Assembly (NCBI GenBank): GCA_000999025.1
Contig: LCFM01000002.1
Span: 436 to 64,435 of the forward strand
Origin: Parcubacteria group bacterium GW2011_GWA2_43_13
Lineage (GTDB): Bacteria; Patescibacteriota; Patescibacteriia; UBA9629; GWA2-43-13
Length of the DNA: 64,000 bases
Direction: 5' to 3'
In this document: one piece after another, positions 4,188 through 45,575 of the stretch
How positions within the stretch are numbered: position 1 is the first letter of the stretch
Layout: each line of letters begins with the position of its first letter
Notes under the pieces: generated by a model
Database searches by the model: none
What the model saw: the letters and a program-made list of their open reading frames with translations, nothing else
Told to the model about the DNA's origin: nothing
Position numbers and translations under genes: made by a program

Positions 4188-4502
4188 TTACGCTGAAATT
4201 GTATCAATCCGTACTTTTGTTTTGTGCTGGCGATGGCCGTAGACCTTATGGTAGCGTACTTTTGCCTTATACTTTTCAACGCGAATTTTGCGGTCGCGGG
4301 TTTGTTCTAAAATTGTGCCAACCACTTTTGCGCCAGCAACTGTCGGCGTGCCAACTGACACTTTTGACCCGTCTTCTTCAGCAATAAGAAACGGCTCAAA
4401 CTCAACTATTGAGTTACCTTCTCCAACAAGTTTTTCGATAGCAATAACCATGCCTTCTGTTACTTGATACTGTTTTCCGCCTGTTTTAATGATTGCAAAC
4501 AT
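4188..4502 (-). CDS. rplU: 50S ribosomal protein L21
   Basis: 104 aa, starting MFAIIKTGGKQYQV, which is canonical for L21. Confidence 0.9.
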   Translation of the reverse strand: MFAIIKTGGKQYQVTEGMVIAIEKLVGEGNSIVEFEPFLIAEEDGSKVSVGTPTVAGAKVVGTILEQTRDRKIRVEKYKAKVRYHKVYGHRQHKTKVRIDTISA

Positions 4503-4650
4503 AGATAACTGCGACGCTAATATGCGAATAACACACGAATAACTCGAATATTTGTATCATTCGCATGTATTCGTGTATTCGTGTCGCTCTAAAACAAAGA
4601 CACTATACAACACTCTTTCAACCTCGTCAACCAAGAGCAAAAAAACATCA

Positions 4651-7169: not shown

Positions 7170-7226
7170 AGAATGAATACCTCACCCCCCGTCATTCCGC
7201 ATTCAGCTCCAGACGGGGCAGGCCTA

Positions 7227-7333: not shown

Positions 7334-7344
7334 GGGAGGAGGTG

Positions 7345-8532: not shown

Positions 8533-8611
8533 ATTACCTCAAAAATTGTTCGAAAAAATTTCCTCGAGGTTTGGCATTTTCTGCTCAAAAGAGCATTCAG
8601 CGACAGTCCCA

Positions 8612-9007
8612 TTATATCTTATTCAGATATTCTTCCAAAATCTGCGCCGCGACAAAATGGTCAACAGGCATGTTTGTTTGCAGTGGTTGAGATACAAGCT
8701 GATCAGCCAAACGCGATGTCATCCGTTCATCGTACTCATGCACAGGCAGAGCATACCGCGCGCGGACTGTTTCTATAAAATCGCGCGCTTCACGCGTCTG
8801 TTCGGTTTCAGTGTCATTCAGGCCCAAAGGAAGCCCGACAACAATGGTTGAAATATCATGTTCTTTTACACATTCATCCATATCATCCCAAAAATCAGGC
8901 CCGCAGGCGTCGAGCGTTGTGAGCGGAACTATTTTATGGTCAGCATCAACAGTAATAGCAATACCGACATTTTTTTTGCCATAATCAATGGCAAGAACGT
9001 GAGACAT
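8612..9007 (-). CDS. ruvX: Holliday-junction resolvase-like RuvX/YqgF
   Basis: 131 aa. N-terminal LAIDYGKKNVGIA (RNase H-like fold) and a conserved acidic residue pattern. Confidence 0.85.
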   Translation of the reverse strand: MSHVLAIDYGKKNVGIAITVDADHKIVPLTTLDACGPDFWDDMDECVKEHDISTIVVGLPLGLNDTETEQTREARDFIETVRARYALPVHEYDERMTSRLADQLVSQPLQTNMPVDHFVAAQILEEYLNKI

Positions 9008-9027
9008 GTAAGGAATACCTCCCTGTA

Positions 9028-9050
9028 TCCCATCCTTGATAAGGAGAGGG
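9028..9050. repeat. family-B palindrome (degenerate) between map and ruvX
   Basis: cccatccttgataaggagaggg. Confidence 0.45.
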
Positions 9051-9061
9051 CGAGGGGTGGT

Positions 9062-9835
9062 TTACATTTTTGTAATAACTTCCGGGCCGTCTTTGGTTAC
9101 TATTACGGTATGTTCAAAATGAGCGGCAATAGATCCGTCTTGCGTTTTTACTGACCAGCCATCTTCGCCTGTTACAATATGCCAATCGCCTGTTGTTACC
9201 ATCGGCTCAAGAGCCAATACCATACCTTTAACAATTTGGGGGCCGCGATCTGTGCCGTTTTTCCATGGCCAAAAATTCGGTATTCTCGGATCCTCATGCA
9301 CTGAGTATCCAACCCCATGGCCGACAAGATCCCTCACAATACCATATTCATGTTCTGGAATCGCGCTTTGAATAGCAGTTGATATGTCTGCAATATAATT
9401 GCCAATACGCGCCTGCTCTATCCCACTCTCAAGCGCGCGCCGAGTGACTGATAACAATCTGGACAAAGAATCAGAGACATCTCCTATCGCAACTGTCATA
9501 GCGCAATCGGTAAACAATCCATGAAGATTAACCCCACAATCCAATCCTACCACATCGCCTTGGGTAAAAATTTTATCTTCAGACGGAAGCGAATGTACAA
9601 TCTCATCATTCACCGATACGCATAAAGCGGCAGGGTATTCCCTGCCTTTGGGCCCGTACATTTTAAATGACGGTACTGCGCCGTGATCGTGAATATATTT
9701 TTCTGCGAAAATATTCAACTCTGCCGCGCTGACTCCCTCGCGCACTCTCTCAACCAATTCTTTCATTGTATCAGCAAGAATCTTCCCACTCTCGCGCAAC
9801 AGTTCAATATCTTCTTCCCGCGTAATAATAGCCAT
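9062..9835 (-). CDS. map: methionine aminopeptidase type I
   Basis: Start chosen at MAIITREEDIELLRESG. Carries the pita-bread-fold metal ligands (D, D, H, E, E pattern). Confidence 0.9.
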   Translation of the reverse strand: MAIITREEDIELLRESGKILADTMKELVERVREGVSAAELNIFAEKYIHDHGAVPSFKMYGPKGREYPAALCVSVNDEIVHSLPSEDKIFTQGDVVGLDCGVNLHGLFTDCAMTVAIGDVSDSLSRLLSVTRRALESGIEQARIGNYIADISTAIQSAIPEHEYGIVRDLVGHGVGYSVHEDPRIPNFWPWKNGTDRGPQIVKGMVLALEPMVTTGDWHIVTGEDGWSVKTQDGSIAAHFEHTVIVTKDGPEVITKM

Positions 9836-9908
9836 AACGGAGAAATGACACATTTCAAATAAAATTCGAATACCACATACGGTGTTAATAACTATGTTGA
9901 CTTTTTCA

Positions 9909-10484
9909 TTACTCCAGCCCCAACTCTTTTACAATATCTTGATGAACCTTTTCTTGCTCCTGATAACCATCAATAAACACTGTTTTGCAATTGCGCGCAA
10001 AATAATCAATCGCCGGTTTTACTGACGAATAAAAATGATCAATACGATGCTGGATTGTCTCTGGCGTATCATCATTTCTGTGACGATCCTCAAGCCGCTT
10101 GCGCGCGACATCTTCGGGAATCTCTATCGCCAATACAACGACATGTGATATCCCCAGCCGTTGCATCATATCCAACGCATCCTGAGCTTGTGTCTCCCTG
10201 CGTGCATATCCGTCAATAATAATCTTGTCGTGATTCTGAAGAAGATCGCGCAATGCCTCTTCTACCAAAGGCGTGGTTTCGGAATCTTCCATGTGAATGC
10301 CTTTTTCCAAGCGTTCACTAATGGAATGGCCGCGAGGAGAATCTTCCGTAGCAATTGTGCGAAATATTTTTCCAACTTCAATAGAGGCAAACCCATACCG
10401 TTGCTGTAATAATTCTCCTTGAGTACCTTTGCCCGAACCGGCAATCCCCATTAAAAAAATAATAAAAGCATCATTATGTGTCAT
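9909..10484 (-). CDS. adk: adenylate kinase
   Basis: Start at MTHNDAF. Has the P-loop GIAGSGKGTQ. Confidence 0.9.
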   Translation of the reverse strand: MTHNDAFIIFLMGIAGSGKGTQGELLQQRYGFASIEVGKIFRTIATEDSPRGHSISERLEKGIHMEDSETTPLVEEALRDLLQNHDKIIIDGYARRETQAQDALDMMQRLGISHVVVLAIEIPEDVARKRLEDRHRNDDTPETIQHRIDHFYSSVKPAIDYFARNCKTVFIDGYQEQEKVHQDIVKELGLE

Positions 10485-10561
10485 AAAAAAATCTCGGTTC
10501 TTTCCGCAACGCGAATGGAAAGAGAGTACCGAGAAAAATATCATTCACGTAGAAAAAAATC

Positions 10562-11866
10562 CTATGCATCGTATGAATAACTATGGTACGCCATTTGTGC
10601 CTCAACCTTTTTCATTGATTCGATTATAACAGACACCACAATCAAAAGCGAGGTTCCGCCAATCACAAGGTTAAATCCGGTAAATGATTGCACCAATAAC
10701 GGCAAAATAGCGATAATCCCCAAAAACACTGACCCAGCAAGTAAAATCCTGTTTACCACTGCCTGCATATACACTTCGGTCTCTTTGCCCGGCCTGATTC
10801 CCGGGATAAAACTCCCTTGCTTTTGAAGATTTTCCGCTATCTGACGCGGTTGGAAAATAATGGCAGTATAAAAATAGGTGAATGCCACCACTAATACGAA
10901 ATAAATAATACCGTACGGAAGCCCGCCTTGCTGGAATATATTAATGATAAATCCTGCCACGTCCGCAACCCATGGAGATGTCGCGCGCACAAAAAATTGC
11001 GCAATAAACGGGGGAAACAACACCACTGATATGGCAAAGATAATCGGAATCACTCCTGCCATGTTCACGCGCAAAGGAAGATAATTCTGCGCGCCTGACA
11101 TCAACCGTCCGCCGCGCATTTGACGCGCGTGGGCAATGGGGACATTGCGCTGGCCTTCTGTAATAAACACCACCCCGGCGACAACAATAACCGCGATCAC
11201 GAGCAATAACACGTAATTCGTCAATGACGCAGGGTTGTTTGAAATATCCAAACCGATTTGAAATGCGGCTTGCGGAAGGCTGGCGATAATTCCGGCGAAA
11301 ATCAATAAGGAAATGCCGTTTCCCAAACTGCGTTCCGAAATAATCTCACCGATCCACATAAGTAAAACCGTACCAGCCATGACTGTGATAATTGTAGTTA
11401 CCCATGTTATAGGCGTAAACTGATCAAGAAACTGCGAAGCAGATCCCGCACCCGAGCTTGCCCGACTCAAAAAAATAATAGTGCTATATCCTTGCAATGC
11501 GGCTAACGGAACTGTTAACAACCGCGTCCATTTATTGATAATACGTTGCCCTCGCTCTCCTTCTTTTGATAAATCCTCAAAATAGGGAACAATCATGCCG
11601 AGTAATTGAAAAATGATAGATGACGTAATATACGGGCCCACGCCAAGCATGACAATAGAAAAGTTCTCAAGCCCGCCACCGGTTAAAAGATTTAAAAGCC
11701 CCAACACTTGATTTCCTGATAAAGACGCGCGCAATGCAGTAGTATCAATGCCTGGAACAGGAATATGCGCAAGAAACCGAAACGCGACAAGCATCAGCAA
11801 TACAAAAATCAAATCATTGCGCAACTGTTTGGTGGTGAGAAATTGTTTAAATCGGGTTGAAAATGA
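10562..11866 (-). CDS. secY: preprotein translocase subunit SecY
   Basis: 10 TM helices, with a start at MSFSTRFKQF. Sits in the conserved position after rplO. Confidence 0.9.
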   Translation of the reverse strand, partial: SFSTRFKQFLTTKQLRNDLIFVLLMLVAFRFLAHIPVPGIDTTALRASLSGNQVLGLLNLLTGGGLENFSIVMLGVGPYITSSIIFQLLGMIVPYFEDLSKEGERGQRIINKWTRLLTVPLAALQGYSTIIFLSRASSGAGSASQFLDQFTPITWVTTIITVMAGTVLLMWIGEIISERSLGNGISLLIFAGIIASLPQAAFQIGLDISNNPASLTNYVLLLVIAVIVVAGVVFITEGQRNVPIAHARQMRGGRLMSGAQNYLPLRVNMAGVIPIIFAISVVLFPPFIAQFFVRATSPWVADVAGFIINIFQQGGLPYGIIYFVLVVAFTYFYTAIIFQPRQIAENLQKQGSFIPGIRPGKETEVYMQAVVNRILLAGSVFLGIIAILPLLVQSFTGFNLVIGGTSLLIVVSVIIESMKKVEAQMAYHSYSYDA

Positions 11867-12007
11867 CATACGATGAGGGTGTAGTAATATCTCTACGTCA
11901 TCTGAGTTCGCTCGCTGGCGGACGAAGAATCTCGTATAGAGCAAACTAAGAGGGGCCCTTCGTCTCCGCCAGCTGGCGAATCCTTAGGATGACAAAAACA
12001 AACAAGG

Positions 12008-12514
12008 TTATGCTTTCTTTTTCTGGCGCTCTGCTTTCGGCAAAACATTGCGGACTTTTTCGTGTACAACAAGTTCAATAGTACCTCCTGCTTGTTCAAT
12101 ACTCTTTCTCGCTGTTTCAGAGACCTTTTCCAATTTAACTGTCAGTGATTTTGAAAGCGCTCCTCTTCCTAAACATTTTACACCTAAAGAGGATTTTTTG
12201 ACGATACCTTTCTGTATCAAAGCAACTCTATCAACAACAGCGCCTTTTTCAAACAACTGATTGAGGTCGCCAACATTGATAATATCAAAATGCGGCTGAA
12301 GGGAACGAAAACCTCGCAGTTTAGGTATTTTTGATAAAAACTGATCTTTTAACGCTCTGCGCTTCAAGCCACTCTTTCCGCCCGCGCGAGAGCGCTGGCC
12401 TTTCATGCCTCTGCCTGAATATGATCCTTTGCCTGAAGCATTGCCACGTCCAACACGCTTGCTTTTTGAATGCGAGCCAGATGCCGAATGTAATGTGTGT
12501 AATGTGAGTGACAT
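12008..12514 (-). CDS. rplO: 50S ribosomal protein L15
   Basis: N-terminal Gly/Arg-rich KRVGRGNASGKG. Confidence 0.9.
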   Translation of the reverse strand: MSLTLHTLHSASGSHSKSKRVGRGNASGKGSYSGRGMKGQRSRAGGKSGLKRRALKDQFLSKIPKLRGFRSLQPHFDIINVGDLNQLFEKGAVVDRVALIQKGIVKKSSLGVKCLGRGALSKSLTVKLEKVSETARKSIEQAGGTIELVVHEKVRNVLPKAERQKKKA

Positions 12515-12564
12515 AATGTATAACTTACGAACTGATGAGCCTACGAACCCATAAACCGATAAAC

Positions 12565-13254
12565 TTATAAACTCTTTTGTTCTTCAGGTTTACGATTCTT
12601 CGATTCTTGCATTTTCCGTGGTTTATTCGATCGAGACGATGGTTTTCTTGGGCCAGGTTTTTGCGCACGCTGGGCCTCACGTTCTGTCTGTTCTTTCAAT
12701 ATCCGTTCACGCTCCGCTTTTCTCCCCTCAACCATCTTTTTATGTGAATCTATTTGGCGTTGCATATGAGCCGGAACTTCATCGCGCAATGACTCAAGCG
12801 CTCGAATAGTGGCATGGACATTATTCAATTTATTATTCGATCCTAAAATTTTACCAACAACATTTTCCACGCCTGCTAATATAAGCACGGTCCGAACAGC
12901 GCCACCCGCAATAACGCCGGTCCCTAATGCCGCAGGTTTTAACAACACTTTTGCCGCTTTGAATTTCATAGATACGGCATGCGGAATTGTTCCGCCTGCC
13001 ACATGAATAGAAATCATATTCTTCCGCGCGGCAGATGCGGCTTTACTGATAGCTAATTGAACATCAGCGCCTTTTGCCGTGCCCATTCCAATACGGCCGG
13101 CTTTATCACCAAGCACAACACACGCGCGAAAACGCATACGTTTCCCTCCTGCCATAACACGCGTAACACGAGCGAGGTCAATAATCGCTTGGTCAAAATC
13201 ATGCTGTTGTTCTTGTCGTGGTCTCATATCTCTCACGAGGTTCGAATCCGCCAA
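12565..13254 (-). CDS. rpsE: 30S ribosomal protein S5 with a long basic C-terminal extension
   Basis: S5 core plus about 65 extra Lys/Arg/Glu-rich C-terminal residues. Confidence 0.9.
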   Translation of the reverse strand: MADSNLVRDMRPRQEQQHDFDQAIIDLARVTRVMAGGKRMRFRACVVLGDKAGRIGMGTAKGADVQLAISKAASAARKNMISIHVAGGTIPHAVSMKFKAAKVLLKPAALGTGVIAGGAVRTVLILAGVENVVGKILGSNNKLNNVHATIRALESLRDEVPAHMQRQIDSHKKMVEGRKAERERILKEQTEREAQRAQKPGPRKPSSRSNKPRKMQESKNRKPEEQKSL

Positions 13255-13295
13255 CCGACGGACAAAATTCGAAACTATTACATAATAGGATTACA

Positions 13296-13643
13296 TTAAA
13301 ACTCTAATCCTGCTGATCGCGCCGCTTCGGCAACCGCTTTCACACGGCCATGATACGCATATCCTCCCCGATCACACACAATGGTGATTATCTTTTTCTC
13401 TTGCGCTTTTTGAGCGATCTCTTTCCCTACCATCTCGGCCTGTTCAAGTTTTGTGCCTTTTTTCAATCCAAGCGTTGATGAAGATGCTATCGTAATCCCG
13501 TTCACGTCATCAACCAATTGCGCGACAATATGGCGAGCACTGCGGAAAATAGAAAGCCGAGGCCGTTCTGACGTGCCTTGTATTCTTGTCCGGATACGCG
13601 CATGGCGCCGGATGCGTGATTGCTGTTTCTTAAGAAGAGTCAT
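13296..13643 (-). CDS. rplR: 50S ribosomal protein L18
   Basis: 115 aa with L18 motifs. Confidence 0.9.
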   Translation of the reverse strand: MTLLKKQQSRIRRHARIRTRIQGTSERPRLSIFRSARHIVAQLVDDVNGITIASSSTLGLKKGTKLEQAEMVGKEIAQKAQEKKIITIVCDRGGYAYHGRVKAVAEAARSAGLEF

Positions 13644-13652
13644 ACAAAAATA

Positions 13653-14204
13653 TTATCCGCCTGACTTCACTTGTTTACCGGCTTTTCTGCGGATGATTTC
13701 ATCGCTATACTTAATTCCCTTGCCTTTATACGGCTCTGGCTTACGCACTTTTCGCACATTCGCGGCAAATTCACCAACTTGTTGCTTATCAATTCCTCGT
13801 ATACTGATAACATTCTTTTCTACTTTCACCTCTACTCCTTGAGGCGGAACCATAATCACAGGATGAGAAAATCCAACCGAAAGAGTAAGTGTGCCACTAT
13901 CAATATTGGCGCGGTATCCGACACCATTGATTTCCAATTGTTTTGAAAATCCTTCTGTAACGCCACACACCATATTTGCCGCAAGAGCCCGACTCAACCC
14001 CCAAAACGCACGCTCGCTTTTTTCTTCAGGATGAGCAACCGAAATCTCGAGCTGTTTTTCAGCATCGTTATACACCATAATCGCCTTTGACGGCATTGTT
14101 TGTGTTAATTCTCCCAACGGACCTTTCACACTCAAAACAGAACCATGTATAGAAATAGTTACGTTTGCTGGAATAGTAATGGGAAGTTTTCCTATACGTG
14201 ACAT
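13653..14204 (-). CDS. rplF: 50S ribosomal protein L6
   Basis: 183 aa with the tandem L6 domains. Confidence 0.9.
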   Translation of the reverse strand: MSRIGKLPITIPANVTISIHGSVLSVKGPLGELTQTMPSKAIMVYNDAEKQLEISVAHPEEKSERAFWGLSRALAANMVCGVTEGFSKQLEINGVGYRANIDSGTLTLSVGFSHPVIMVPPQGVEVKVEKNVISIRGIDKQQVGEFAANVRKVRKPEPYKGKGIKYSDEIIRRKAGKQVKSGG

Positions 14205-14234
14205 ACTATTAAATTAAAATGTAAATTTTATCTT

Positions 14235-14627
14235 TCAATATACTTCACACAACACTTCGCCGCCAACTTGTTCCTGTTGCGCTTTTTTATTTGTCATAAG
14301 ACCTTTGGGTGTTGAAATAACAGCTATTCCCAAATCATTCAACACTTTAGGCATATTTTTATATGAACGATATACCCTCTGCCCAGGCGTGCTTATTCGC
14401 TTAATCGTTGTTATACGCGGCGCATGTCCTTGATATTTCAGATCAACCACCAATGCCGATTTTATCCCCTCTGTCTCAATGCTCACACCGCCAACATACC
14501 CCTCTTCTTCGAGAATACGGGCAATCTCCTTTTTCATGCGAGAATAAGGAATCAAAACCGACCGTTTTTTAGCGGCTTGTGCGTTGCGAATACGCGTTAA
14601 CATGTCTGCTATTGGGTCTGTCATCAT
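14235..14627 (-). CDS. rpsH: 30S ribosomal protein S8
   Basis: 130 aa, starting MMTDPIADMLTRIRNA. Confidence 0.9.
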   Translation of the reverse strand: MMTDPIADMLTRIRNAQAAKKRSVLIPYSRMKKEIARILEEEGYVGGVSIETEGIKSALVVDLKYQGHAPRITTIKRISTPGQRVYRSYKNMPKVLNDLGIAVISTPKGLMTNKKAQQEQVGGEVLCEVY

Positions 14628-14715
14628 ACACTAAGTTAAAAAGCAAAAAGTAAAAAGTTAAAGATGTATATCAGCCGTTATTTTTGACTTTTGCTCTTTC
14701 ATTTTTGATCTTTAG

Positions 14716-14901
14716 TTACCAGCTACTACTTTTCACTCCAGGAATTTCTCCTTTACAAGCAAGCTCACGAAAACAAATACGACACAAGCCAAACACACGC
14801 ATATACCCGTGATTTCTTCCGCATCTCCAACACCTCCGCACAATGCGGGTAGAAAATTTAGGTTTCCGTTTTGACTTTGCGATACGTGCTTTTGTTGCCA
14901 T
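14716..14901 (-). CDS. rpsZ: 30S ribosomal protein S14 type Z (zinc-binding)
   Basis: 61 aa with CxxC...CxxC. Confidence 0.9.
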
Positions 14902-14917
14902 ATTACGAATGAGAGTG

Positions 14918-14995
14918 CGATACTAATACACGGATTCATGCGAATGACGCGAATATTCGTGTCATTCGTGTGCCATTCGTATATTAGCATCGCAT
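14918..14995. repeat. 78-bp repeat, copy A, filling the rplE-rpsZ spacer
   Basis: cgatactaatacacggattcatgcgaatgacgcgaatattcgtgtcattcgtgtgccattcgtatattagcatcgcat. Near-identical to 15893..15969. Starts directly after the rplE stop codon. Confidence 0.8.
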
Positions 14996-14997
14996 GT

Positions 14998-15558
14998 TTA
15001 GAGTTTCTCTTTTACAAACGGCATTCCAAATTCCCGATACAACGCAAGTGCATGATCACGATTCTGCGCTTGTACTGAGATTGTTATTTGTAATCCATGC
15101 GTATGCTCAACAGTATCAGGATTCACTTCAGGAAACACATAATGCTCGGAAAGCCCTATTGAAAGGTTCCCACTCTGATCAACGGATGTCATGGGAATGC
15201 CACGAAAATCACGCACGCGAGGTAAGGTAATATGAACCAACCTCTCAAGGAAATCATACATTCTGCGTCCACGCAAGGTTACCATCATACCGACAACGCT
15301 TCCTTCTCTCAATTTAAATCCTGCTATTGATTGCCGAGCTTTTGTTTCAACCGGTTTTTGGCCAGAAATCCGAACCAGCGTTTCTTTTACCGTATCAACC
15401 GCTTTCTGATCTTTTGACATCTTCCCAATACCAACATTAAGGGTAATTTTTTTCACCCAAGGCACTGCTAAAACATTTGAAAGGCCTAATTCGTCTTTCA
15501 ACTTTTTCACTATAATGGTATCAAAATTTTTCTTCAGATTGTTCATACGTCGGTTCAT
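14998..15558 (-). CDS. rplE: 50S ribosomal protein L5
   Basis: 186 aa with the L5 signature. Confidence 0.9.
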   Translation of the reverse strand: MNRRMNNLKKNFDTIIVKKLKDELGLSNVLAVPWVKKITLNVGIGKMSKDQKAVDTVKETLVRISGQKPVETKARQSIAGFKLREGSVVGMMVTLRGRRMYDFLERLVHITLPRVRDFRGIPMTSVDQSGNLSIGLSEHYVFPEVNPDTVEHTHGLQITISVQAQNRDHALALYREFGMPFVKEKL

Positions 15559-15568
15559 GTATCCTGTA

Positions 15569-15883
15569 TTATGTTATTTCCTCTCCCGAGCGCGTGCTCA
15601 CTCTCACTCGCTTCCCATCTGCAAGAGATTTTACACGCACCCGCGTCGGCTTTCCGCTCTGTGGGCATTTCAGCATAACATTTGAAATATGGAAAGGCGC
15701 TTCAAAAGTAATCTTCTGGCCTTTTTCTGATTTTTTTCCGGACTTCAAATGCTTTGTCATAATATTCACTCCGGAAACGACAACACGATCAAGCTCGGGA
15801 AATACCTGCAGTACTTTCCCTTCTTTGCCTTTGTTCTTCCCGGCCATGATAACAACAATGTCATTTTTTTTGATACGAGTCAT
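15569..15883 (-). CDS. rplX: 50S ribosomal protein L24 (alternative GTG start at 15898)
   Basis: KOW motif IVVIMAGKNKGKEGKV. Confidence 0.85.
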   Translation of the reverse strand: MTRIKKNDIVVIMAGKNKGKEGKVLQVFPELDRVVVSGVNIMTKHLKSGKKSEKGQKITFEAPFHISNVMLKCPQSGKPTRVRVKSLADGKRVRVSTRSGEEIT

Positions 15884-15892
15884 AGACGAGCG

Positions 15893-15969
15893 CGACACTA
15901 ATACACGGATTCATGCGAATGACGCGAATATTCGTGTCATTCGTGTGTCATTCGTATATTAGCATCGCA
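15893..15969. repeat. 78-bp repeat, copy B, filling the rplN-rplX spacer
   Basis: About 75/78 identical to copy A. Starts at the rplN stop codon. Contains direct and inverted ACGAATGAC units on the mRNA strand. Confidence 0.8.
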
Positions 15970-16341
15970 TTATAATACTTCCGGCGCAAGCGAAATAATT
16001 TTTTGAAACCCCTTTTGCCGAAGTTCGCGGGCAACAGGACCAAAAATACGCGTACCTTTCGGTTCTTTGGTTTTTTGATCAACCACGGCAACCGCATTCT
16101 CATCAAATCGGATTCTCACCCCATTCGCCCGAGTAATTTCTTTTTTTGTCCGCACCACAACAGCATACACAACATCTCCTTTCTTTACAGCAGTATGAGG
16201 AGTTGATTCTTTGATAGCACACGTCACGATATCGCCGATTGTGGCGTATCGCTTTCTATACCCTCCATTCACGCGGATCACCTGAAGTTTCCGCGCGCCT
16301 GTGTTATCTGCAGATTGTACTATTGTGCGTGTTTGAATCAT
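15970..16341 (-). CDS. rplN: 50S ribosomal protein L14
   Basis: 123 aa, starting MIQTRTIV...ADNTGA. Confidence 0.9.
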
Positions 16342-16387
16342 ACAGTAATCTTAAACTTTTCCTTGTCATTTTTCTGTTTTCCACTTT

Positions 16388-16642
16388 TTAAATCTTCCCA
16401 ATAACTCGCCATTTCTTTTCTTTCGATAAGGGACGACATTCGGCAATTTCAACATGATCTCCAACAGCATACATTCCATCTTCATCATGAGCTTTATAGT
16501 TCCTGCTTTGCGTTATGCGCTTATGATACAACCGATGAACTGTAACGCGATCAACGCGAACAACAACCGTCTTTTGCATTGCAGTTGACACCACGGTGCC
16601 TTTGAGCGTTCTTTTTTTTACTGATTGTGTTCGTGTTTCCAT
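16388..16642 (-). CDS. rpsQ: 30S ribosomal protein S17
   Basis: 84 aa. Confidence 0.9.
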   Translation of the reverse strand: METRTQSVKKRTLKGTVVSTAMQKTVVVRVDRVTVHRLYHKRITQSRNYKAHDEDGMYAVGDHVEIAECRPLSKEKKWRVIGKI

Positions 16643-16651
16643 AGATCGTGA

Positions 16652-16840
16652 TTACGTTGCAATCTGACGCAATGCCGTATTGATACGCGCGATTAATATT
16701 TTTATCTCGTGTATTTTATGAACTGTTTTTAACTGACCTGCCGCGACCTGAAACGTAAGCGCACGAAGCTCATTCCGGCTTTCGGTCAATTTTTTTGTCA
16801 ATTCATCTTTTGAAAGTATGCGCACATCATTCATCTTCAT
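16652..16840 (-). CDS. rpmC: 50S ribosomal protein L29
   Basis: 62 aa. Confidence 0.85.
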   Translation of the reverse strand: MKMNDVRILSKDELTKKLTESRNELRALTFQVAAGQLKTVHKIHEIKILIARINTALRQIAT

Positions 16841-16867
16841 ATATGTATCCTAAAGGAATCAAATCCA

Positions 16868-17284
16868 TTATGCCTTAACAACAAACTTTGTTTTTACTGG
16901 TAATTTATGGCCAGCCAACCGAAATGCTTCTCGAGCAGTCGCTTCATCAACGCCATCCATCTCAAAAATAACTGTTCCTGGCCGTACATTCGTCACATAA
17001 TGATCCACAGCTCCTTTCCCCTTTCCCATCGGAACAGCCAATCCTTTTGTTGTAATTGGCTTATCCGGAAAAATACGGATCCATACCTTGCCTCCACGCC
17101 GGATAAACCGCATAATCGCGCGACGCGACGCTTCAAGCTGACGTGATGTTACCCAGCTTGCCGTTGTTGACTTGAGCCCGAATGAGCCAAAGCTCACTGA
17201 ATGGGTTCGCGTCGCAACAGACCCGCCGGACATCCCTGCGGATTTATGCCATTTTCTGTGTTTTACTTTTTTAGGAATCAGCAT
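16868..17284 (-). CDS. rplP: 50S ribosomal protein L16
   Basis: Starts [11 protein letters not shown]. Confidence 0.9.
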
Positions 17285-17324
17285 AGATATCTTTTAAAAG
17301 AGTAGAGTATTTTTGACACATTCT

Positions 17325-18014
17325 TTACTTGCTGTCAATATCTCCCTGCATCTCATGATCTTCTTCATGGACATCTCCAAATAATTCACCTTTATAAATC
17401 CACACTTTAATTCCAATAACCCCGTAGGTTGTGCGCGCAATGCCACGTCCATAACTGATATCGGCCCGCAATGTATGCAGTGGCATACTTCCATCAGACA
17501 GTGTTTCAGTACGTGCGATTTCCGCGCCATTGAGCCGGCCCGCAACCTGAACTTTCACCCCAAGCGCTCCTGCTTTTTTCACCTGATCAATAGTGCCTTT
17601 CATAACACGCCTAAATGGCATGCGACGTTGAATTTCCGCGGCCATAGAGGAGACAACAACATCTGCGGACAGCATGGGTTTTTTTAACTCTTTGATGGTT
17701 AACTGAACATCTCCTTTTCTTTTTAACGCCTTATTTTTAATTTCTTCTTTCACTTCTTCAGCTTTCTGTCCGCCACGACCAATAACAACTCCGGGCCGAG
17801 CCACAGACACAATAACCTCGATATTTTTCTCCGCGCGACGCACAACTTCTATCAAACCAACCCCGCCATCTTTAAATCGCTGTTTCACGATCTTTCGTAT
17901 CGCCTGATCTTGCTGAAGAAGAGGACCCATCCCGGTGCCATGATGAAACCACTTGGATGTCCAAGTTAGCGTGCCCCCCAGTCGGAATATTCGCGGATTA
18001 ACTTTTTGTCCCAT
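17325..18014 (-). CDS. rpsC: 30S ribosomal protein S3
   Basis: Starts MGQKVNPRIFRLG and contains a KH domain. Confidence 0.9.
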   Translation of the reverse strand: MGQKVNPRIFRLGGTLTWTSKWFHHGTGMGPLLQQDQAIRKIVKQRFKDGGVGLIEVVRRAEKNIEVIVSVARPGVVIGRGGQKAEEVKEEIKNKALKRKGDVQLTIKELKKPMLSADVVVSSMAAEIQRRMPFRRVMKGTIDQVKKAGALGVKVQVAGRLNGAEIARTETLSDGSMPLHTLRADISYGRGIARTTYGVIGIKVWIYKGELFGDVHEEDHEMQGDIDSK

Positions 18015-18055
18015 ATATGAATAACTTATGAACAGATAATCATGAAAGAGTATTA

Positions 18056-18493
18056 TTATTTTTTTCCGCCAGAGGCGATGTGCCCACCTTTGGCTGGAGA
18101 TCCGCCTTTGGCGGAGTTTTTTGTCCGCCGGCTGGCGGATTGTTCTTTGTCCTTATGCACGTCCGGCCCTTCCAATACAAGAGTGATATGAGATGAACGC
18201 TTTCGAAGCGGAGTAGCTCTCCCATGAGCGCGCGGCATCCATCGCGAAAGAGTTTGTCCGTCTTGCGCTGTTGCTATTTTAATCACAAGCATTGCTCGAT
18301 TCATCCCCAAATTATGCTCTGCGTTCGCAATCGCTGATTGGAGTATTTTAAACACAGGACGAGCCGCTTCTTTAGAACTATGCACAAGCTGGGCAAGTGC
18401 GTCTTCTGCCTTCATCTTTCGTATCATAGCCAAAACCAACCGAACTTTTCGGGGAGATATACGAATTTGACGTGCGCTTGCTTTTACTTCCAT
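18056..18493 (-). CDS. rplV: 50S ribosomal protein L22 with a repeat-derived C-terminal tail
   Basis: L22 core begins MEVKASARQIRISPRK. The last ~22 aa (RTKNSAKGGSPAKGGHIASGGKK) are encoded by the repeat at 18062..18125. Confidence 0.9.
   Translation of the reverse strand: MEVKASARQIRISPRKVRLVLAMIRKMKAEDALAQLVHSSKEAARPVFKILQSAIANAEHNLGMNRAMLVIKIATAQDGQTLSRWMPRAHGRATPLRKRSSHITLVLEGPDVHKDKEQSASRRTKNSAKGGSPAKGGHIASGGKK
18062..18125. repeat. family-D ~64-bp palindromic repeat inside the 3' end of rplV
   Basis: About 85% identical to 50632..50694 at the 3' end of nrdR. Contains a ccgccagaggcg ... cgcctttggcgg hairpin. Confidence 0.75.
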
Positions 18494-18515
18494 AGTATAT
18501 TCAAACTCTTGTCTC

Positions 18516-18818
18516 TCATTTTTGAGCAACGGTCTTTGTTTTTGATTCAATCTCTTTTTGTATCTTTCCGCCATGACGAACAAACTTGCGTGTCGGAGCG
18601 AATTCTCCCAAACGATGACCTACCATATCTTCAATAACATACACAGGGACATGAACTTTTCCATTATGAACACCAATGGTCAAACCAACCATCTCCGGAA
18701 TAATCATGCTGTCGCGCGACCATGTTTTTATCGTTGCCTTGTTTCCAGGTTGAGTTGCATGAACTCTCTTAAGAAGCTTTGCGTCAATAAATGGTCCTTT
18801 TTTAATACTGCGTGCCAT
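18516..18818 (-). CDS. rpsS: 30S ribosomal protein S19
   Basis: Starts [12 protein letters not shown]. Confidence 0.9.
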
Positions 18819-18917
18819 ACGTTCAAGTACCAGTTTTCGATCCTCGGTTATCAGTTTTCAAAAAACCGACACCTTCCATCCACCTCTGGCGGAGACAACC
18901 GAAAACTGGATGTATTA

Positions 18918-19724
18918 TTATTTCCGTTTCTTCCTTTTTTTGATAATAAAACGATTACTTGTTGTTCGTTTTCTTGTTTTAATACCCATGACTTTCTTTC
19001 CATAAACACTCTTCGGGCCTTTCAACCCGATTGGCTGATGCCCCTCACCACCGCCATGCGGATGATCAACAGGGTTCATTGACTTTCCTGTTACCGACGG
19101 CCGCACTCCGCGATGCCGCATGCGCCCTGCTTTCCCCAAACGGACATTCCGATAATCGCTATTAGATACCTGTCCTACTGTTGCCAATGCATTTTTGGAA
19201 AACAAACGAACTTCTCCGGACGGCATTTTTACCTGCGTATATGCTCCTTCTGTGCTTTGGACAATGGCGACCATCCCAGCGGAACGAACCATACGACCGC
19301 CTTTTCCGGGCTGAACTTCAATATTATGTACAGCAACTCCTGTCGGGATATATTCCAAAGGCATGGTATTTCCCGGTTTTATCGGCGCTTGCCCTTGTTT
19401 TGACAGCACGACATCACCTGTATGTAACCCTTCCGGCGCAATGATATATCTCTTTTCTCCATCGCTATACTGCAATAACGCAATAAACGGAGTCCGATTC
19501 GGATCATATTCCAATGCTATTACCTTTGCTTCCCTGTCATATTTATTGCGTTTAAAATCAATCACTCGATACATCTGTTTATTCCCACTCCCTTGATGCC
19601 GAACCGTAATTTTGCCTTGATTGTTTCTGCCGGCATGAGTCGGCAACGAAATAACCAAAGATTTCTCTGGCTTCTTTTTCGAGAGGGAACTGTAATCAAT
19701 AACAGATGCCCCTCTGCGAGCTGG
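18918..19724 (-). CDS. rplB: 50S ribosomal protein L2
   Basis: Start at MPIKRYKPTTPARRG. Confidence 0.9.
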   Translation of the reverse strand, partial: PARRGASVIDYSSLSKKKPEKSLVISLPTHAGRNNQGKITVRHQGSGNKQMYRVIDFKRNKYDREAKVIALEYDPNRTPFIALLQYSDGEKRYIIAPEGLHTGDVVLSKQGQAPIKPGNTMPLEYIPTGVAVHNIEVQPGKGGRMVRSAGMVAIVQSTEGAYTQVKMPSGEVRLFSKNALATVGQVSNSDYRNVRLGKAGRMRHRGVRPSVTGKSMNPVDHPHGGGEGHQPIGLKGPKSVYGKKVMGIKTRKRTTSNRFIIKKRKKRK

Positions 19725-19870
19725 CGTTGTCGGTTTGTATCTTTTTATCGGCATATACCATAATTTTAATCTACGAATATTATCCGAATGCAACGAACAC
19801 TACACATACCATCTGATACATTCATAGATTGGTAGATTCGAATGTCATTCGTAGATTAGAATTGCCCATT

Positions 19871-20251
19871 CTACACATTTTCAAACACATCAATATGCGA
19901 TCCTTCAGGCAGTGTAATAATCGCTTTTTTCACATCTGAACGCTTGCCCAATGAACGCGAAAATTTATTTTTCTTCCGTTTTCCCAGAATGCGAACTGTA
20001 TTGATTGCAACCGGCTTTACACCATACACTCCTTCCACAGCCCGCGCAACCTCAACTTTATTCGCAGAAACAGGCACAAAAAAGATGACTTTCGATGCTC
20101 CTAAAGCGGCTGACTTTTCAGTCACAACCGGACGCAACAGCAATCCCGCCTCTCGTTTTTGCAAAACCCGCTTTTTTTCATCACGAACACCGGCAATCCG
20201 CTTTTTTTCGACTGCTTGCTGAATGTTATTTTTTTTCTTTAACAATGCCAT
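19871..20251 (-). CDS. rplW: 50S ribosomal protein L23 (N-terminally extended)
   Basis: L23 core is LLRPVVTEKS... Confidence 0.85.
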   Translation of the reverse strand: MALLKKKNNIQQAVEKKRIAGVRDEKKRVLQKREAGLLLRPVVTEKSAALGASKVIFFVPVSANKVEVARAVEGVYGVKPVAINTVRILGKRKKNKFSRSLGKRSDVKKAIITLPEGSHIDVFENV

Positions 20252-20260
20252 AGGGATCTA

Positions 20261-20905
20261 TTACACTGCTTTCGTAAATAATTTCTCTATCTTTTTTATG
20301 CCGCCTTGCGTAATAATCATTGCATCAGCTTTCAGCACATCAATAATATTTAATGAATCAGGAGCGCATACCGCGACATGAGGAATATTCTGCGTCGTTC
20401 TAATCAGCTCTGCATCGAAAGTTTCAAAACTCACCAACACTCGCTTCCCTATCCATGGCAGTTGCTTAAGAATACGCACCATCTCTTTTGTTTTAGGGCT
20501 CTTCAGTACAATCTTATCCACGACAATCAAACGATCCTCCTTCGCTTTATCAGATAATGCCATTTTGAGCGCGGCCTGTTTCATCTTTTTATTTATTCGT
20601 TGAGAAAAATTCCGTTCATTCGTCGGGCCAAACGTTACGCCTCCTCCAATCCATATCGGAGACCTGCTTGATCCATGACGCGCTCTGCCTGTGCCTTTTT
20701 GTTTCCATGGCTTTCGTCCGCCTCCGCGCACTTCAGCGCGGCCTTTTGTATGAGCCACAACTGTACGCGCATTCGCATGTTGAGCCACCACAACCTGATG
20801 AACCAAGGCCTCGGATATCGGCACGCAAAAAATCGCATCAGGCAAATCCACTATCCCGATTTCTTTTCCGGTCTGATCGTAAAGTTTCGTTTGAATATCT
20901 GCCAT
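20261..20905 (-). CDS. rplD: 50S ribosomal protein L4
   Basis: 214 aa. Confidence 0.9.
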   Translation of the reverse strand: MADIQTKLYDQTGKEIGIVDLPDAIFCVPISEALVHQVVVAQHANARTVVAHTKGRAEVRGGGRKPWKQKGTGRARHGSSRSPIWIGGGVTFGPTNERNFSQRINKKMKQAALKMALSDKAKEDRLIVVDKIVLKSPKTKEMVRILKQLPWIGKRVLVSFETFDAELIRTTQNIPHVAVCAPDSLNIIDVLKADAMIITQGGIKKIEKLFTKAV

Positions 20906-20908
20906 ACA

Positions 20909-21535
20909 TTATTCTTGAATAATCTCAACCCATGAATTGCGCGCTCCGGGGATGCCTCCTTTGACATATACCATATTCTTATCAGAATCAACTTTCATAA
21001 TTTCAAGGCCACGAATAGCAACCTGAACAGCTCCCATATGCCCTGGCATTTTTCTGCCCTTAAAAACCTCTTGTGGTCCGGTTGACCCAATAGATCCAGG
21101 CATACGTTCTTGATCTTTATGTCCATGAGATGCTGGTCCGCCTGAAAATCCATGGCGCTTGACAACGCCTTGAAAACCTTTCCCTTTGGTCACCCCTCGC
21201 ACAGTCACAGTATCTCCTACTTGAAATTGCTCCACCCCCAATTCGGCCCCTGCTGTGTGATCGAATACTCGATTGCCATGACGAGTATTTAACCGAACCT
21301 CTTTCAGCTTTCGATATGCCGGCATTCCCAATTTTTGAAAAAACCCAGCATGAGGTTTTGAGCTTTTTTTTGCCACACCCGCCGCAATGCGCACTCCATC
21401 ATATCCGTCTGTTTCTTGCGTTTTCACACGAGCAACACGATTCGGCTGTGCTGTAACAATCGTAACACTAACCAGATTTCCGGCCTGATCATATAATTGC
21501 GTCATTTCCTTTTTCTGACCTAACAGATACTTCAT
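20909..21535 (-). CDS. rplC: 50S ribosomal protein L3
   Basis: 208 aa. Confidence 0.9.
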   Translation of the reverse strand: MKYLLGQKKEMTQLYDQAGNLVSVTIVTAQPNRVARVKTQETDGYDGVRIAAGVAKKSSKPHAGFFQKLGMPAYRKLKEVRLNTRHGNRVFDHTAGAELGVEQFQVGDTVTVRGVTKGKGFQGVVKRHGFSGGPASHGHKDQERMPGSIGSTGPQEVFKGRKMPGHMGAVQVAIRGLEIMKVDSDKNMVYVKGGIPGARNSWVEIIQE

Positions 21536-21846
21536 ACAATATAATCCTAATATCCGAATGCACTCGAATGCAATGAGTCCCCTTCGTTCAGAACATGTGT
21601 AGATTCGGATAGTATTCGCAGATTAGGATCGCTGTTTAAAAAAAACATCCCGCCTCAACTCGACGGAAGTGATATCAAACAGCAGTGCTGGTATCTCTGT
21701 CCTTGAATGAGTTGGTCAATTGTAGATTGGGGAAAAAACAACACCTTTCACGGTTCAGGGACGCAGTATGCACTTTCCCCTGCGTGCGCTGAAAAAATAA
21801 TTTTCAGAACGCGCAGAGGAGTTGCATACTAAGACCGAATTGAACC

Positions 21847-22194
21847 TTACATTTTTATTTCAACATCAACGCCTGCGGGTAAGTTTAACTTCATTAGGTC
21901 GTCAACTGTTTGCGGAGTCGGATTAAAAATATCAATCAACCTTTTATGAATTCGCATCTCAAACTGATCACGCGAATTTTTATGAACAAACGTTGACTTG
22001 AGCACAGTAAACTTTTTCTTTTCAGTGGGCAGAGGGACAGGGCCTGCGATTTCCGCTCCCGAGCGCTGGGCTGTATCAATGATTTTTCGCGTTGATTGAT
22101 CAATTATTTTATGATCATACGCGCGAATTTTCAAACGGATACGCGTCTTTACCTCGTCGTCTTTCACTGGAGTTGTAATGTTCTTCTCTGACAT
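21847..22194 (-). CDS. rpsJ: 30S ribosomal protein S10
   Basis: Contains [14 protein letters not shown]. Separated from rplC by an unusually long 310-bp spacer. Confidence 0.9.
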
Positions 22195-22212
22195 GGAAAA
22201 ATTACATGAACC

Positions 22213-22245
22213 AGCCCTGCCTCCCCATACGAGGGAGACAGGGCT
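22213..22245. repeat. family-B-like palindrome between tuf and rpsJ
   Basis: agccctgcctcccc-atac-gagggagacagggct. Confidence 0.5.
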
Positions 22246-22253
22246 TAGTAAAT

Positions 22254-23444: not shown

Positions 23445-23489
23445 GGTGAGTTTTTTCCACAGCCCCCACACCTATTACCTATTCTTCCA

Positions 23490-23509
23490 TGATCAGTATA
23501 CTGATCATA
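23490..23509. promoter_or_regulatory. 20-bp perfect palindrome ATGATCAGTATACTGATCAT in the tuf 5' region, nested inside an 11-12 bp inverted repeat
   Basis: Perfect dyad 46-65 nt upstream of the tuf start. Flanked by cacctattcttc / gaagaataggtg. Confidence 0.5.
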
Positions 23510-23774
23510 TCTCCTAAAAAATAAAAGATGTGTTTAGAAGAATAGGTGCGGGGTTTCAATCCAGCCGTGGCGCTATATTAAATATGTTCAATCATGATAA
23601 GATACCGCATGCTTTCGATATCCTCTCATAAAGGCACATGAATAATAGATGAGAAAAATTGTCATGTTATCCACAGCAGGAAACAGTGATGATTGTACCA
23701 CACTGCGTCAAAAAAACAAGGGGATGATTGCACCCCGATCCCCCCTTATATACACATCAAGGAAAAAAGAGCAT

Positions 23775-44946: not shown

Positions 44947-45575
44947 ATTGAACAAAGATGAGAGGTTATTATTTTTACTGATGATCTCATTTTTAATAGT
45001 TCTATCACTCCAATGGGGACACCAATATAGAGTATATCCCCCACAAGCATGTTGCGATAAAAAGGAATCCCCGCAACCAACGACGCGACCAAACCATTCA
45101 ATGTATGCGGATACAGCGTTCCAAACAGCCACACCGCGGAGTTTGTCAACAGGAAAAAAGTGAGTGAACCGAGTAATGCACATAATACCCCTCGCGACAC
45201 ACCCCTTAATCCCCTCTCAAGAGGGGAAAACGACGGCCTCCCTCCTTGAGGAGGGATTGAGGGAGGTGTCATTCGTGAGCTATTCGTCGTATATTCGTGA
45301 GCTATTCGTCCCCAAATGGCATACAACGCAAACCCCACATACACACTCACAAAAATAGGCAAGTGATACCACCCAATCACGCTATCGCTGACCATCATGG
45401 CACCAAAGCTCAAGAGAATTCCAACCCACCACGGTTTTAGATAATATGCACTTAAAAAACCAACTGCGCCGATAGGAGTAAAATTCCATGGATGCGGAAG
45501 AAGTCGAGCCACAATAACAAGCAAAAAGAAAATAATGAAAAATCCATATCGTTTCATAGACCAGTATCTTATCAT
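44922..45575 (-). CDS. polytopic membrane protein carrying an in-frame composite repeat insertion
   Basis: Six predicted TM helices. Residues HEYTTNSSRMTPPSIPPQGGRPSFSPLERGLRGVSRG are encoded by repeats at 45211..45311. Confidence 0.55.
   Translation of the reverse strand: MIRYWSMKRYGFFIIFFLLVIVARLLPHPWNFTPIGAVGFLSAYYLKPWWVGILLSFGAMMVSDSVIGWYHLPIFVSVYVGFALYAIWGRIAHEYTTNSSRMTPPSIPPQGGRPSFSPLERGLRGVSRGVLCALLGSLTFFLLTNSAVWLFGTLYPHTLNGLVASLVAGIPFYRNMLVGDILYIGVPIGVIELLKMRSSVKIITSHLCSIWQKTTKN
45211..45311. repeat. composite repeat inside the CDS: two family-B palindromes plus a duplicated attcgtgagctattcgtc unit
   Basis: cccctctcaagagggg; cctccctccttgaggagggattgagggagg; cattcgtgagctattcgtcgtatattcgtgagctattcgtcc. 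Confidence 0.7.

Follow-up and report, generated by a model that had tools for sequence, protein, structure and literature searches.

Near-identical palindromes in the spc ribosomal-protein operon of a Parcubacteria bacterium are probably solo copies of a small nuclease-gene cassette

We analyzed a 64,000-nt stretch of DNA (the window) from Parcubacteria group bacterium GW2011_GWA2_43_13 (contig LCFM01000002.1, positions 436 to 64,435). The S10-spc ribosomal-protein operon lies on its minus strand, and two of the operon's spacers are filled by near-identical repeats, which we will call copies A and B. (They are "solo" copies in that they contain no open reading frame (ORF) of their own.) Genes in the window were called from ORFs and from the database's precomputed Pfam hits. 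In the order of transcription, the features are:

15970..16341, minus strand: rplN (L14), upstream of copy B; stop codon at 15972-15970
15888..15972, minus strand: solo copy B, which fills the rplN/rplX spacer; palindrome core at 15968-15892
15569..15883, minus strand: rplX (L24), downstream of copy B; ATG at 15883-15881; no Shine-Dalgarno motif
14998..15558, minus strand: rplE (L5), upstream of copy A; stop codon at 15000-14998
14913..14997, minus strand: solo copy A, which fills the rplE/rpsZ spacer; palindrome core (GCGA...TCGC) at 14993-14917
14716..14901, minus strand: rpsZ (61-aa S14), downstream of copy A; ATG at 14901-14899; no Shine-Dalgarno motif

An initial annotation, made from the window's sequence, had reported the two copies, and they are real: A and B align without gaps, with 3 differences in about 83 positions (95–96% identity). 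A 29-nt core occurs in the window at A and B only, while shuffled sequences lead us to expect 0 occurrences. The internal features that had been described, namely two direct ACGAATGAC(AC) units, a central GAATATTC, and an inverted GTCATTCG, are all present. What had been missed is that the whole unit is a single 77-nt imperfect palindrome, GCGATGCTAAT...ATTAGTRTCGC, whose core in A and B has the layout GCGATGCTAATATACGAATGRCACACGAATGACAC GAATATTC GCGTCATTCGCATGAATCCGTGTATTAGTRTCGC. The general form of the palindrome is GCGAY...RTCGC, and it is made of CGAAT/ATTCG pentamers. By itself, the 9-mer ACGAATGAC shows no enrichment in the window (21 versus 17 expected matches); only the composite element is significant. 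The predicted fold of A and B, on either strand, is a ~35-bp hairpin with an energy of -39 to -45 kcal/mol (z-scores from -5.7 to -7.2). Each copy had also been said to start exactly at the upstream stop codon. This is correct for B, where the TAA overlaps the element (TAATGCGA), but A begins after a gap of 3–4 nt from the TAA of rplE. At their 3' borders, B stops 8 nt short of the rplX ATG and A stops 15 nt short of the rpsZ ATG.

We also noticed that these repeats seed spurious ORFs (14733-14990 on the minus strand and 15594-15962 on the plus strand of the window). An 85-aa ORF that starts from an ATG inside copy A is called as a gene in one public assembly (L005), and the genuine 61-aa rpsZ is overlooked by most assemblies.

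The window's L5 is 100% identical to L5 of Candidatus Jacksonbacteria bacterium RIFCSPLOWO2_02_FULL_43_9, and the contigs derive from Rifle groundwater metagenomes. We compared the two spacers with those of related genomes, as the initial annotation had suggested. In the relative L043, whose L5 is 83% identical to the window's, the rplE/rpsZ site is empty: the junction is GAGAAAGTATAA-TACT-ATGGCAAC, which reads TAA-TACT-ATG. The rplN/rplX spacer of L043 holds a different 128-nt hairpin with CGAAT units (-39.9 kcal/mol). In L042 (L5 85% identical), the rplE/rpsZ spacer has A-like termini with a longer and different interior, and the contig begins inside a copy in the rplN/rplX spacer. The other end of the L042 contig lies inside a copy after rplO. 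Because assemblies break at repeats, a contig that begins and ends inside copies indicates that these elements behave as repeats. In three more distant Jacksonbacteria (L044-46; L5 61–64% identical), the rplE/rpsZ spacer is just 9 nt and the rplN/rplX spacer is 4 nt.

Judging from the empty sites in relatives, A and B came by insertion. The family is multi-copy, occurs in both orientations, and is variably present between relatives. A solo copy lies in the rplN/rplX spacer of L012 as well (RplN 49% identical), and in the dnaB/ybaB spacer, a closer relative (L013/L021) has a 150-nt composite copy where the window has 13 nt (3148-3162). Copy B is 64% identical to its counterpart in L042, as compared to 56–63% identity at third codon positions, whereas A and B match each other at 95–96% of positions within the genome. 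From these two comparisons, we conclude that A and B were copied recently or have been homogenised, and that no constraint on them can be detected between species.

To see the 10 kb of the genome that lie on either side of the window, we used L047 (100% identical to the window across 11 kb) and L049 (99.97% across 16.6 kb). Here, a left and a right half-element, or arm, surround a gene for a 126-aa protein (L047 20019-20399), which lies ~9 kb outside of the window's first base. The layout is TAA-AAG GCGACACGAAATGCGCGAATACAACACACGAATGACAC ... ATG ... TAA ... GCGTCATTCGTGTGATTTTCGAGTTTTTAGCGTCGC-TTAT-ATG(scpA). The protein matches PF13366 (PDDEXK_3, E = 4e-19) and TIGR04256, "GxxExxY protein". 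We then drew four more homologues, with proteins that are 60–65% identical, from unrelated genomes:

L052: 3' of a Mur ligase gene; arm, gene, arm
L054: between gap and pgk; arm, gene, arm
L056-59: 3' of an HU gene; arm, gene and a second gene, arm; a separate solo copy lies 1 kb off
L060 (Woesebacteria): 3' of a prepilin peptidase gene; arm, gene, arm

All five of the independent loci from the candidate phyla radiation (CPR) that we inspected as DNA have the arm-gene-arm layout. In four of the five, the left arm (on the gene's strand) best matches positions ~3-44 of our model of the element and the right arm matches positions ~43-82; L060 is reversed. Furthermore, in L052 and L054, the ORF's ATG lies within the arm's C(G/T)AATGAC unit, and the next unit forms codons 3-4. 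The L052 gene starts with ATG ACA CAA ATA (ATGACACAAATA, or MTQI), and the L054 gene starts with ATG ACG CTA ATA (ATGACGCTAATA, or MTLI). The center of A and B, ATGACACGAATA, reads ATG ACA CGA ATA and corresponds to these gene starts. The solo center (ATG ACA CGA ATA / TTCG) is therefore the first four codons of the gene (MTRI) joined to the sequence after the stop codon of full-length copies, and it is fusion at the fourth codon that makes the central GAATATTC palindrome. Judged from the aligned sequences, then, arms and gene go together, and the junction can be placed to the codon. The protein sequences of homologues also carry traces of the arms: 25 of 120 start with MT(R/Q/L)I... or bear ...TRMTR... 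or NTNDTN extensions, and 20 of 120 end in HSD/NSG repeats, which are translated CATTCG/AATTCG.

Inverted repeats may accompany these genes in other bacteria. In plasmid pTS1 of Treponema saccharophilum (L062), a 16-nt inverted repeat (1110-1125 and 1555-1570; CACACGGATTCG and CGAATCCGTGT) flanks an annotated GxxExxY gene, which hints that the association of arms and gene is wider than the Patescibacteria. The TAATCC-type direct repeats at a GxxExxY gene of Persicobacter are no more than suggestive.

By its motif and its predicted fold, the cassette's protein qualifies as a PD-(D/E)XK nuclease. D68, D78, and K80, which form a D...DxK motif, are invariant or nearly so across 22 homologues. The AlphaFold model has a pLDDT (a measure of confidence) of 86, and Foldseek matched it only to proteins with a PD-(D/E)XK fold or a related endonuclease fold. 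Two of these matches are compact, namely Hjc, the archaeal Holliday-junction resolvase (root-mean-square deviation of 3.7 Å over 90 residues), and tRNA-splicing endonuclease; those to Cas4 and lambda exonuclease are weak. Searching by sequence, we did not find a solved structure. The protein is absent from PADLOC, and PHROG gave just one unannotated match. A search with a single sequence returned 1,326 clusters at 50% identity. Many of the cluster representatives have 270-900 amino acids, with the ~125-aa domain at one end; these may be fusions in gene calling with a host neighbor across the arms, or read-through in an alternative genetic code. A 2012 survey of PD-(D/E)XK proteins lists PF13366 as of unknown function, with multiple transfers (PMC3424549). 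This was the sole substantive mention of GxxExxY proteins that we found in the open-access literature, where we found no functional study of them.

We propose that the CPR/Patescibacteria have a very small cassette with inverted repeats and a GxxExxY nuclease gene, and that A and B are solo copies of it, without the ORF. We would put the probability of this proposal at about 0.6. The complete cassette is about 470 bp and comprises a left arm, a gene for a ~125-aa GxxExxY/PF13366 protein of the PD-(D/E)XK type, and a right arm. The left arm (about 40 nt) is GCGAY followed by three or four C(G/T)AAT pentamers with a spacing of 9–11 nt; in the clearest cases, the gene's ATG is inside the arm's CGAATGAC unit. 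The right arm is the inverted complement of the left arm and begins just after the stop codon. The solo form keeps both arms, fused at the fourth codon. The cassette would be selfish: its own nuclease would move it, or copy it by break repair, with the CGAAT-rich arms, or a hairpin or cruciform formed by them, as the substrate. Solo copies might spread in trans, like miniature inverted-repeat transposable elements (MITEs), or they might be homogenised by gene conversion. Either way, our proposal would explain why A and B are 96% alike even though orthologous copies in relatives are ~64% alike.

Our proposal also has to accommodate hairpins within the spc mRNA. Each solo hairpin (~35 bp) would be self-contained, which would leave the upstream stop codon and the next AUG about 10–20 nt apart in space. 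This short folded distance plausibly explains why the insertions are tolerated. Furthermore, we found a Shine-Dalgarno motif in 0 of 25 genes that we checked in and around the ribosomal-protein operons (window 4188-23471). As there are no Shine-Dalgarno sequences for a hairpin to displace, an insertion would do little harm and could persist. (The upstream regions of these 25 genes are A/T-rich and typically end with (T/C/G)T before the ATG. Also, rpmD, which encodes L30, is absent between rpsE and rplO.)

In very divergent members of the family, the pentamers are invariant, and the spacers between them are variable with weak covariation. So the arms look more like arrays for recognition by a protein than like pure pairing partners. 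We tentatively extend our proposal, in a form that we consider possible rather than probable: the GxxExxY/PF13366 protein might be the sole enzyme of an autonomous ~470-bp mobile cassette. It would read the CGAAT arrays in its own arms, or their hairpin or cruciform, and would spread both itself and the ORF-less palindromes through the intercistronic spacers of compact CPR genomes, including core ribosomal-protein operons, with some copies being kept as mRNA leaders.

Other members of the family in the window were found by searching with a profile built from the copies (using nhmmer). They are listed here with the features next to copy C:

4188..4502, minus strand: rplU (L21), downstream of copy C
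4508..4590, plus strand: solo copy C; core at 4511-4587; E = 1e-26; ~78% identical to A and B
4602..4630, minus strand: promoter-like site (TTGACG-17-TATAGT), directly upstream of copy C
19794..19870, minus strand: marginal relic in the rplW/rplB spacer (CTAATCTACGAATGACATTCGAATC...); E = 3e-3; possibly a decayed copy at most
21543..21635, minus strand: decayed member D (GCGATCCTAATCTGCGAAT...ATTCGGATATTAGGAT); E = 2e-5; occupies the 3' end of the 311-nt rpsJ/rplC spacer and stops ~8 nt short of the rplC ATG
45194..45310, minus strand: degenerate in-frame copy inside a gene for a DUF6580 membrane protein (44922-45575); the reading frame is still open

Overall, the window's 64 kb contains 3 intact copies and at least 3 decayed ones. 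The initial annotation had listed six degenerate relatives. One of these (4531-4580) is part of a full copy, one (21541-21640) is decayed, one (45269-45311) is degenerate, and 19794-19870 is marginal. The other two (12520-12560 and 26411-26470) are unsupported, as the profile search gave nothing better than E = 4.5 there.

The copy within the DUF6580 gene has kept a left arm of four CGAAT units and the right terminus GTGTCGCG, and two small G+C-rich palindromes replace the original interior. This insertion translates to a hydrophilic loop (GRIAHEYTTNSSRMTPPSIPPQGGRPSFSPLERGLRGVSRGV), and the Pfam match covers 189 residues versus 153 profile positions. The palindromes belong to a second family, of small G+C-rich palindromes (CCCTCTC...GAGAGGG / CCTCCCCC...GGGGGAGG), which is found at 7227-7284, 32094-32148, and 45215-45265 of the window and at ~2215-2250 of L013. 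Members of this second family recur in intergenic DNA and are nested in the centers of some CGAAT elements. As for the rpsJ/rplC spacer, it is unusually long (311 nt), and its counterpart in the distant Jacksonbacteria (L044-46) is ~325 nt. The spacer contains a terminator-like hairpin (CCTCTGCGCG...CGCGCAGGGG) within 21636-21846 and may harbor a leader or a small RNA that has not yet been described.

Beyond these genomes, we scanned metagenomes from the Joint Genome Institute (JGI) with a pattern for the central palindrome, leaving the variable positions free. This gave 34 loci, and about 16 of them are built in the same way throughout, with (TA)GCGAY termini, a C(G/T)AAT unit every 9–11 nt, and a CGAATATTCG center. 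The metagenomic members come from many groundwater metagenomes and lie in short spacers between co-directional genes or straight after -10-like boxes, and they usually end 1–15 nt before the next start codon. The downstream genes are diverse (tuf, rplX, rplU, prfB, RNase J, parB, a glycosyltransferase, a metallo-beta-lactamase hydrolase, and others). The orientation relative to transcription is random, with 5 in the same direction and 6 reversed. A pattern for the left arm, run against a collection of genome contigs, matched a single half-copy, in a genome of Saccharibacteria; the three copies in the window were not among the matches, so the window's genome is apparently absent from this collection. 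We looked for a right arm 3' of the gene that adjoins this half-copy (L007) and found none. A search of viral contigs found neither solo copies nor relatives of the GxxExxY protein. Comparing the element to Rfam gave nothing at the gathering threshold, just matches at the level of chance (up to E of 10).

Several observations weigh against our proposal. The metagenome pattern demanded an intact CGAATATT center, which biases our sampling of solo copies. We saw just five full-length loci as DNA, and an arm-like peptide at one or the other terminus of 42 of 120 homologues is an indirect sign. The arms of the resident full-length copy are only ~70% like A and B, so this copy is not their recent parent. 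No copy that we examined (A, B, C, and those from metagenomes) is bordered by a target-site duplication or by a target that is conserved; the flanks are just A/T-rich. GxxExxY proteins are not known as transposases or homing endonucleases. Another problem comes from the structure prediction and covariance analysis that had been suggested for the repeats: the hairpin is stable, but covariation between the arms is weak. With the arms in register, 80.1% of cells pair, versus 79.8% in column shuffles and 23–36% if the register is slid, and clear covariation is seen only at alignment columns 10/85 and 11/84. (RNAalifold, run on the family alignment, gave a mis-registered 6-bp helix; when we imposed the hairpin by hand, the covariation was not significant.) Because covariation is weak, neither pairing nor protein recognition of the arms is proven. 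Finally, a purely selfish or neutral element is not predicted to be conserved, yet copy C is: at the rate of change of third codon positions, the probability of 4 or fewer differences in copy C is 6e-7.

This last point leads to the alternative that survives best, which is that solo copies derived from the cassette are now used by the host, as an mRNA hairpin that stabilises either the upstream cistron or the 5' end, as a site for processing by RNase III, or as a bridge that couples the translation of neighboring cistrons. Copy C lies between a terminator and the promoter-like site on one side and the rplU ATG on the other. It is antisense to the rplU mRNA and fills the predicted 5' leader of rplU, given a predicted transcription start, ending 8 nt short of the ATG at 4502. 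When we compared the window to a related species (L013), the promoter was identical at 30/30 positions and copy C at 79/83 (95.2%). Codon positions 1+2 of rplU were 96.2% identical, codon position 3 was 74.3% identical, and the DNA upstream of the promoter was 48% identical. Conservation above the neutral rate indicates that at least copy C is constrained, which fits a role in the 5' leader. This copy is under purifying selection, so some copies may be put to host use. The stability of the hairpins is consistent with this idea, as is the finding that several metagenomic members begin right after -10-like boxes. Also, 4 of about 15 unbiased loci of the family precede translation-related genes (tuf, rplX, rplU, and prfB). 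However, L043 has no copy A, the L042 counterpart of B has diverged from it at a neutral rate, and copies lie in either orientation relative to transcription (5 and 6). We also considered folding of the sense versus antisense strand as a sign of selection on the RNA, but the trend is weak and in the wrong direction: the antisense strand folds better by a mean of 2.4 kcal/mol (p = 0.019, n = 22, with copies that are not independent). Overall, host use of the solo copies seems to us conceivable but rather unlikely.

Upstream of the rplU promoter, we noticed a 40-bp palindrome (CGGTCTTACTTTTTTCACGG / CCGTGAAAAAAGTAAGACCG) with two copies in the window. The copy at 4651-4690 is perfect, is followed by a T run, and was flagged by our scan as an intrinsic terminator; the copy at 40611-40650 is 95% complementary. 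These may be a shared module for bidirectional termination.

We also considered that the arms might form a long-range RNA stem, between the 5' and 3' ends of the transcript, that controls or insulates the GxxExxY gene. Solo copies would then be remnants, in place, after deletion of a gene that was acquired separately. The arms of full-length copies can pair across ~400 nt (-24 to -47 kcal/mol), the start codon is inside the left arm in L052 and L054, and the lack of target-site duplications would be expected. However, the deletion junction of A is identical to that of B, and they share their internal asymmetries and are 96% identical, which indicates that a solo element was copied, rather than that two deletions occurred independently. 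Furthermore, the solo form is the more numerous one (at least 3 intact copies versus 1 full-length copy in ~84 kb of this genome), and a mechanism would still be needed to place the gene between the genes of an operon. We consider this explanation to be unlikely.

A third alternative is a DNA operator: a transcription factor would bind the array of CGAAT pentamers, whose spacing is about one turn of the helix. The invariance of the pentamers across very divergent members, the variable spacers, the weak covariation between the arms, the unit spacing of 9–11 bp, and the overlap of some copies with promoter-proximal regions are all as expected for an operator. But the neighboring genes do not make up a conserved regulon, close relatives differ in which copies they have, and 96% identity over 80 bp, including positions outside of the motifs, implies common descent by copying. 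Also, the encoded nuclease is the most economical candidate for a protein that reads the pentamers. So this explanation seems very improbable. A more specific version, a PhoB/OmpR-like operator of 7-bp repeats with an 11-bp period, was dropped because the spacing is irregular (8–11 bp) and the 80-bp identity reflects copying.

The least probable alternative, and the first option of the initial annotation, is a cis-regulatory RNA of the spc operon that is bound by a ribosomal protein or another RNA-binding regulator: although A and B are stable structures immediately 5' of rpsZ and rplX, the sequence is shared by both of these genes and by rplU, none of the leader families in Rfam matches it, L043 has an empty rplE/rpsZ site and both spacers are 4–9 nt in L044-46, the rplN/rplX sequences of L043 and L042 differ, members also precede parB, RNase J, a glycosyltransferase, and other unrelated genes, and halves of the element flank a nuclease gene. 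The regulatory reading is already largely refuted. The initial annotation had said that its idea would fail if copies were unrelated to ribosomal-protein genes and relatives lacked them, and this is largely what we see, with the qualification that the copy in the rplU leader is under purifying selection. Among the options it had offered, a mobile repeat family is the only one that fits; a binding site for a ribosomal protein or regulator, or a processing site, does not.

A few other ideas were rejected. There is no convincing -35/-10 pair for a promoter inside the element, and the TATAAT at the left border of B is the last codons of rplN. Neither A nor B was flagged as a terminator by our scan, and no U tract follows the hairpins, so they do not appear to be terminators or attenuators. 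By inspection, the elements lack the GTTRRRY cores of integron attC sites. TIGR-Tas arrays have alternating 8–12-nt edge and loop repeats with 9-nt spacers, beside a gene for a Nop-domain Tas protein (PMC12045711). The elements described here have 5-nt motifs, 4–6-nt spacers, no box C/D pattern, and ribosomal-protein genes as neighbors, so they are not a mini-array of this kind.

Two other intervals of the window stood out. Between fusA and tuf (23472-24281), there is a 168-aa ORF with a weak match to PhdYeFM (E = 3e-4, which is under the Pfam cut-off) and a 303-nt spacer, and the corresponding interval in related Jacksonbacteria contains two unannotated ORFs of 100–116 aa. At 5740-5757, the window has 16 nt where the public scaffold from the same genome (L047 5427-5625) has ~200 nt, including a run of Ns. 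This difference is inside a G+C-rich 400-aa ORF (4764-5966) without a Pfam match, and the region may be mis-assembled or variable.

Returning to the proposed nuclease cassette, its closest parallels are among known short repeats. The Correia and NEMIS elements of Neisseria are MITEs: short, non-coding, joined inverted ends that are present in many copies, vary in their presence, lie beside genes, are co-transcribed as hairpins, and have a longer partner with the same ends. Similarly, our solo copies are 77–83 nt, non-coding, dispersed, and variably present, and their terminal arms (GCGAYNCTAAT... and ...ATTAGNRTCGC) are complementary. A longer partner with the same arms was found at all five loci, and its GxxExxY protein is a candidate for the mobilising enzyme. 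Unlike Correia elements, the copies here show no TA or other target duplication, the partner encodes a 125-aa PD-(D/E)XK protein instead of a DDE transposase, each end is an array of CGAAT pentamers, and the ORF's start codon falls within the left one.

The enterobacterial repetitive intergenic consensus (ERIC, also known as intergenic repeat units or IRU) is an imperfect palindrome of ~70–130 nt that is found in transcribed intergenic regions, in operons or untranslated regions, in either orientation, and that varies between species. The elements here share the size, palindromy, intergenic placement, mixed orientation, and variable presence of ERIC, but there is no sequence similarity and the phylum is different. 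ERIC is not known to have a coding partner, while the elements here have a nuclease gene between their arms.

Repetitive extragenic palindromes (REP) and REPINs are thought to be spread by a single-copy enzyme, RAYT, that is itself flanked by the repeats, and a REP hairpin directly behind a stop codon can influence translation and the stability of the mRNA. REPs are 20–40 nt with a GTAG-type head; the elements here are 77 nt, begin with (T)GCGAY, and lack that head. And RAYT is an HUH/Y1 transposase, while the arm-flanked gene here belongs to PF13366/TIGR04256 (the window was not searched exhaustively for Y1 transposases). Separately, palindromes with a common GTAGAGACG...CGTCTCTAC at 6359-6431 and 47220-47247 may be another repeat family, whose GTAG head recalls REP elements.

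The in-frame insertion at 45194-45310 resembles Rickettsia palindromic elements, which insert in frame into protein-coding genes. But no coding partner is known for those elements, their sequence is unrelated, and most copies here are intergenic. Lastly, a small nuclease gene that is sporadically found between conserved genes (between gap and pgk, before scpA, or after a Mur ligase gene), along with forms of the site without an ORF, is reminiscent of homing endonuclease genes. Those normally lack 40-nt inverted arms, and GxxExxY is not a recognised family of homing endonucleases.

Our proposal has implications for how these genomes are annotated. The repeats break metagenome assemblies, seed spurious ORFs, and lead to false N- or C-terminal extensions in gene calls. 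It also raises a question of tolerance, as 80-nt hairpins between cistrons that are adjacent in translation are apparently accepted by a genome that lacks Shine-Dalgarno sequences. Even CPR genomes of ~1 Mb, which are usually called streamlined, carry these dynamic repeats, and do so within the most conserved operon too. For the uncharacterised GxxExxY family, the arms provide the first concrete context and a testable idea, that the protein acts on its own CGAAT-rich arms. If the protein is also the sole enzyme of an autonomous mobile cassette, then this cassette would be among the smallest of its kind known.

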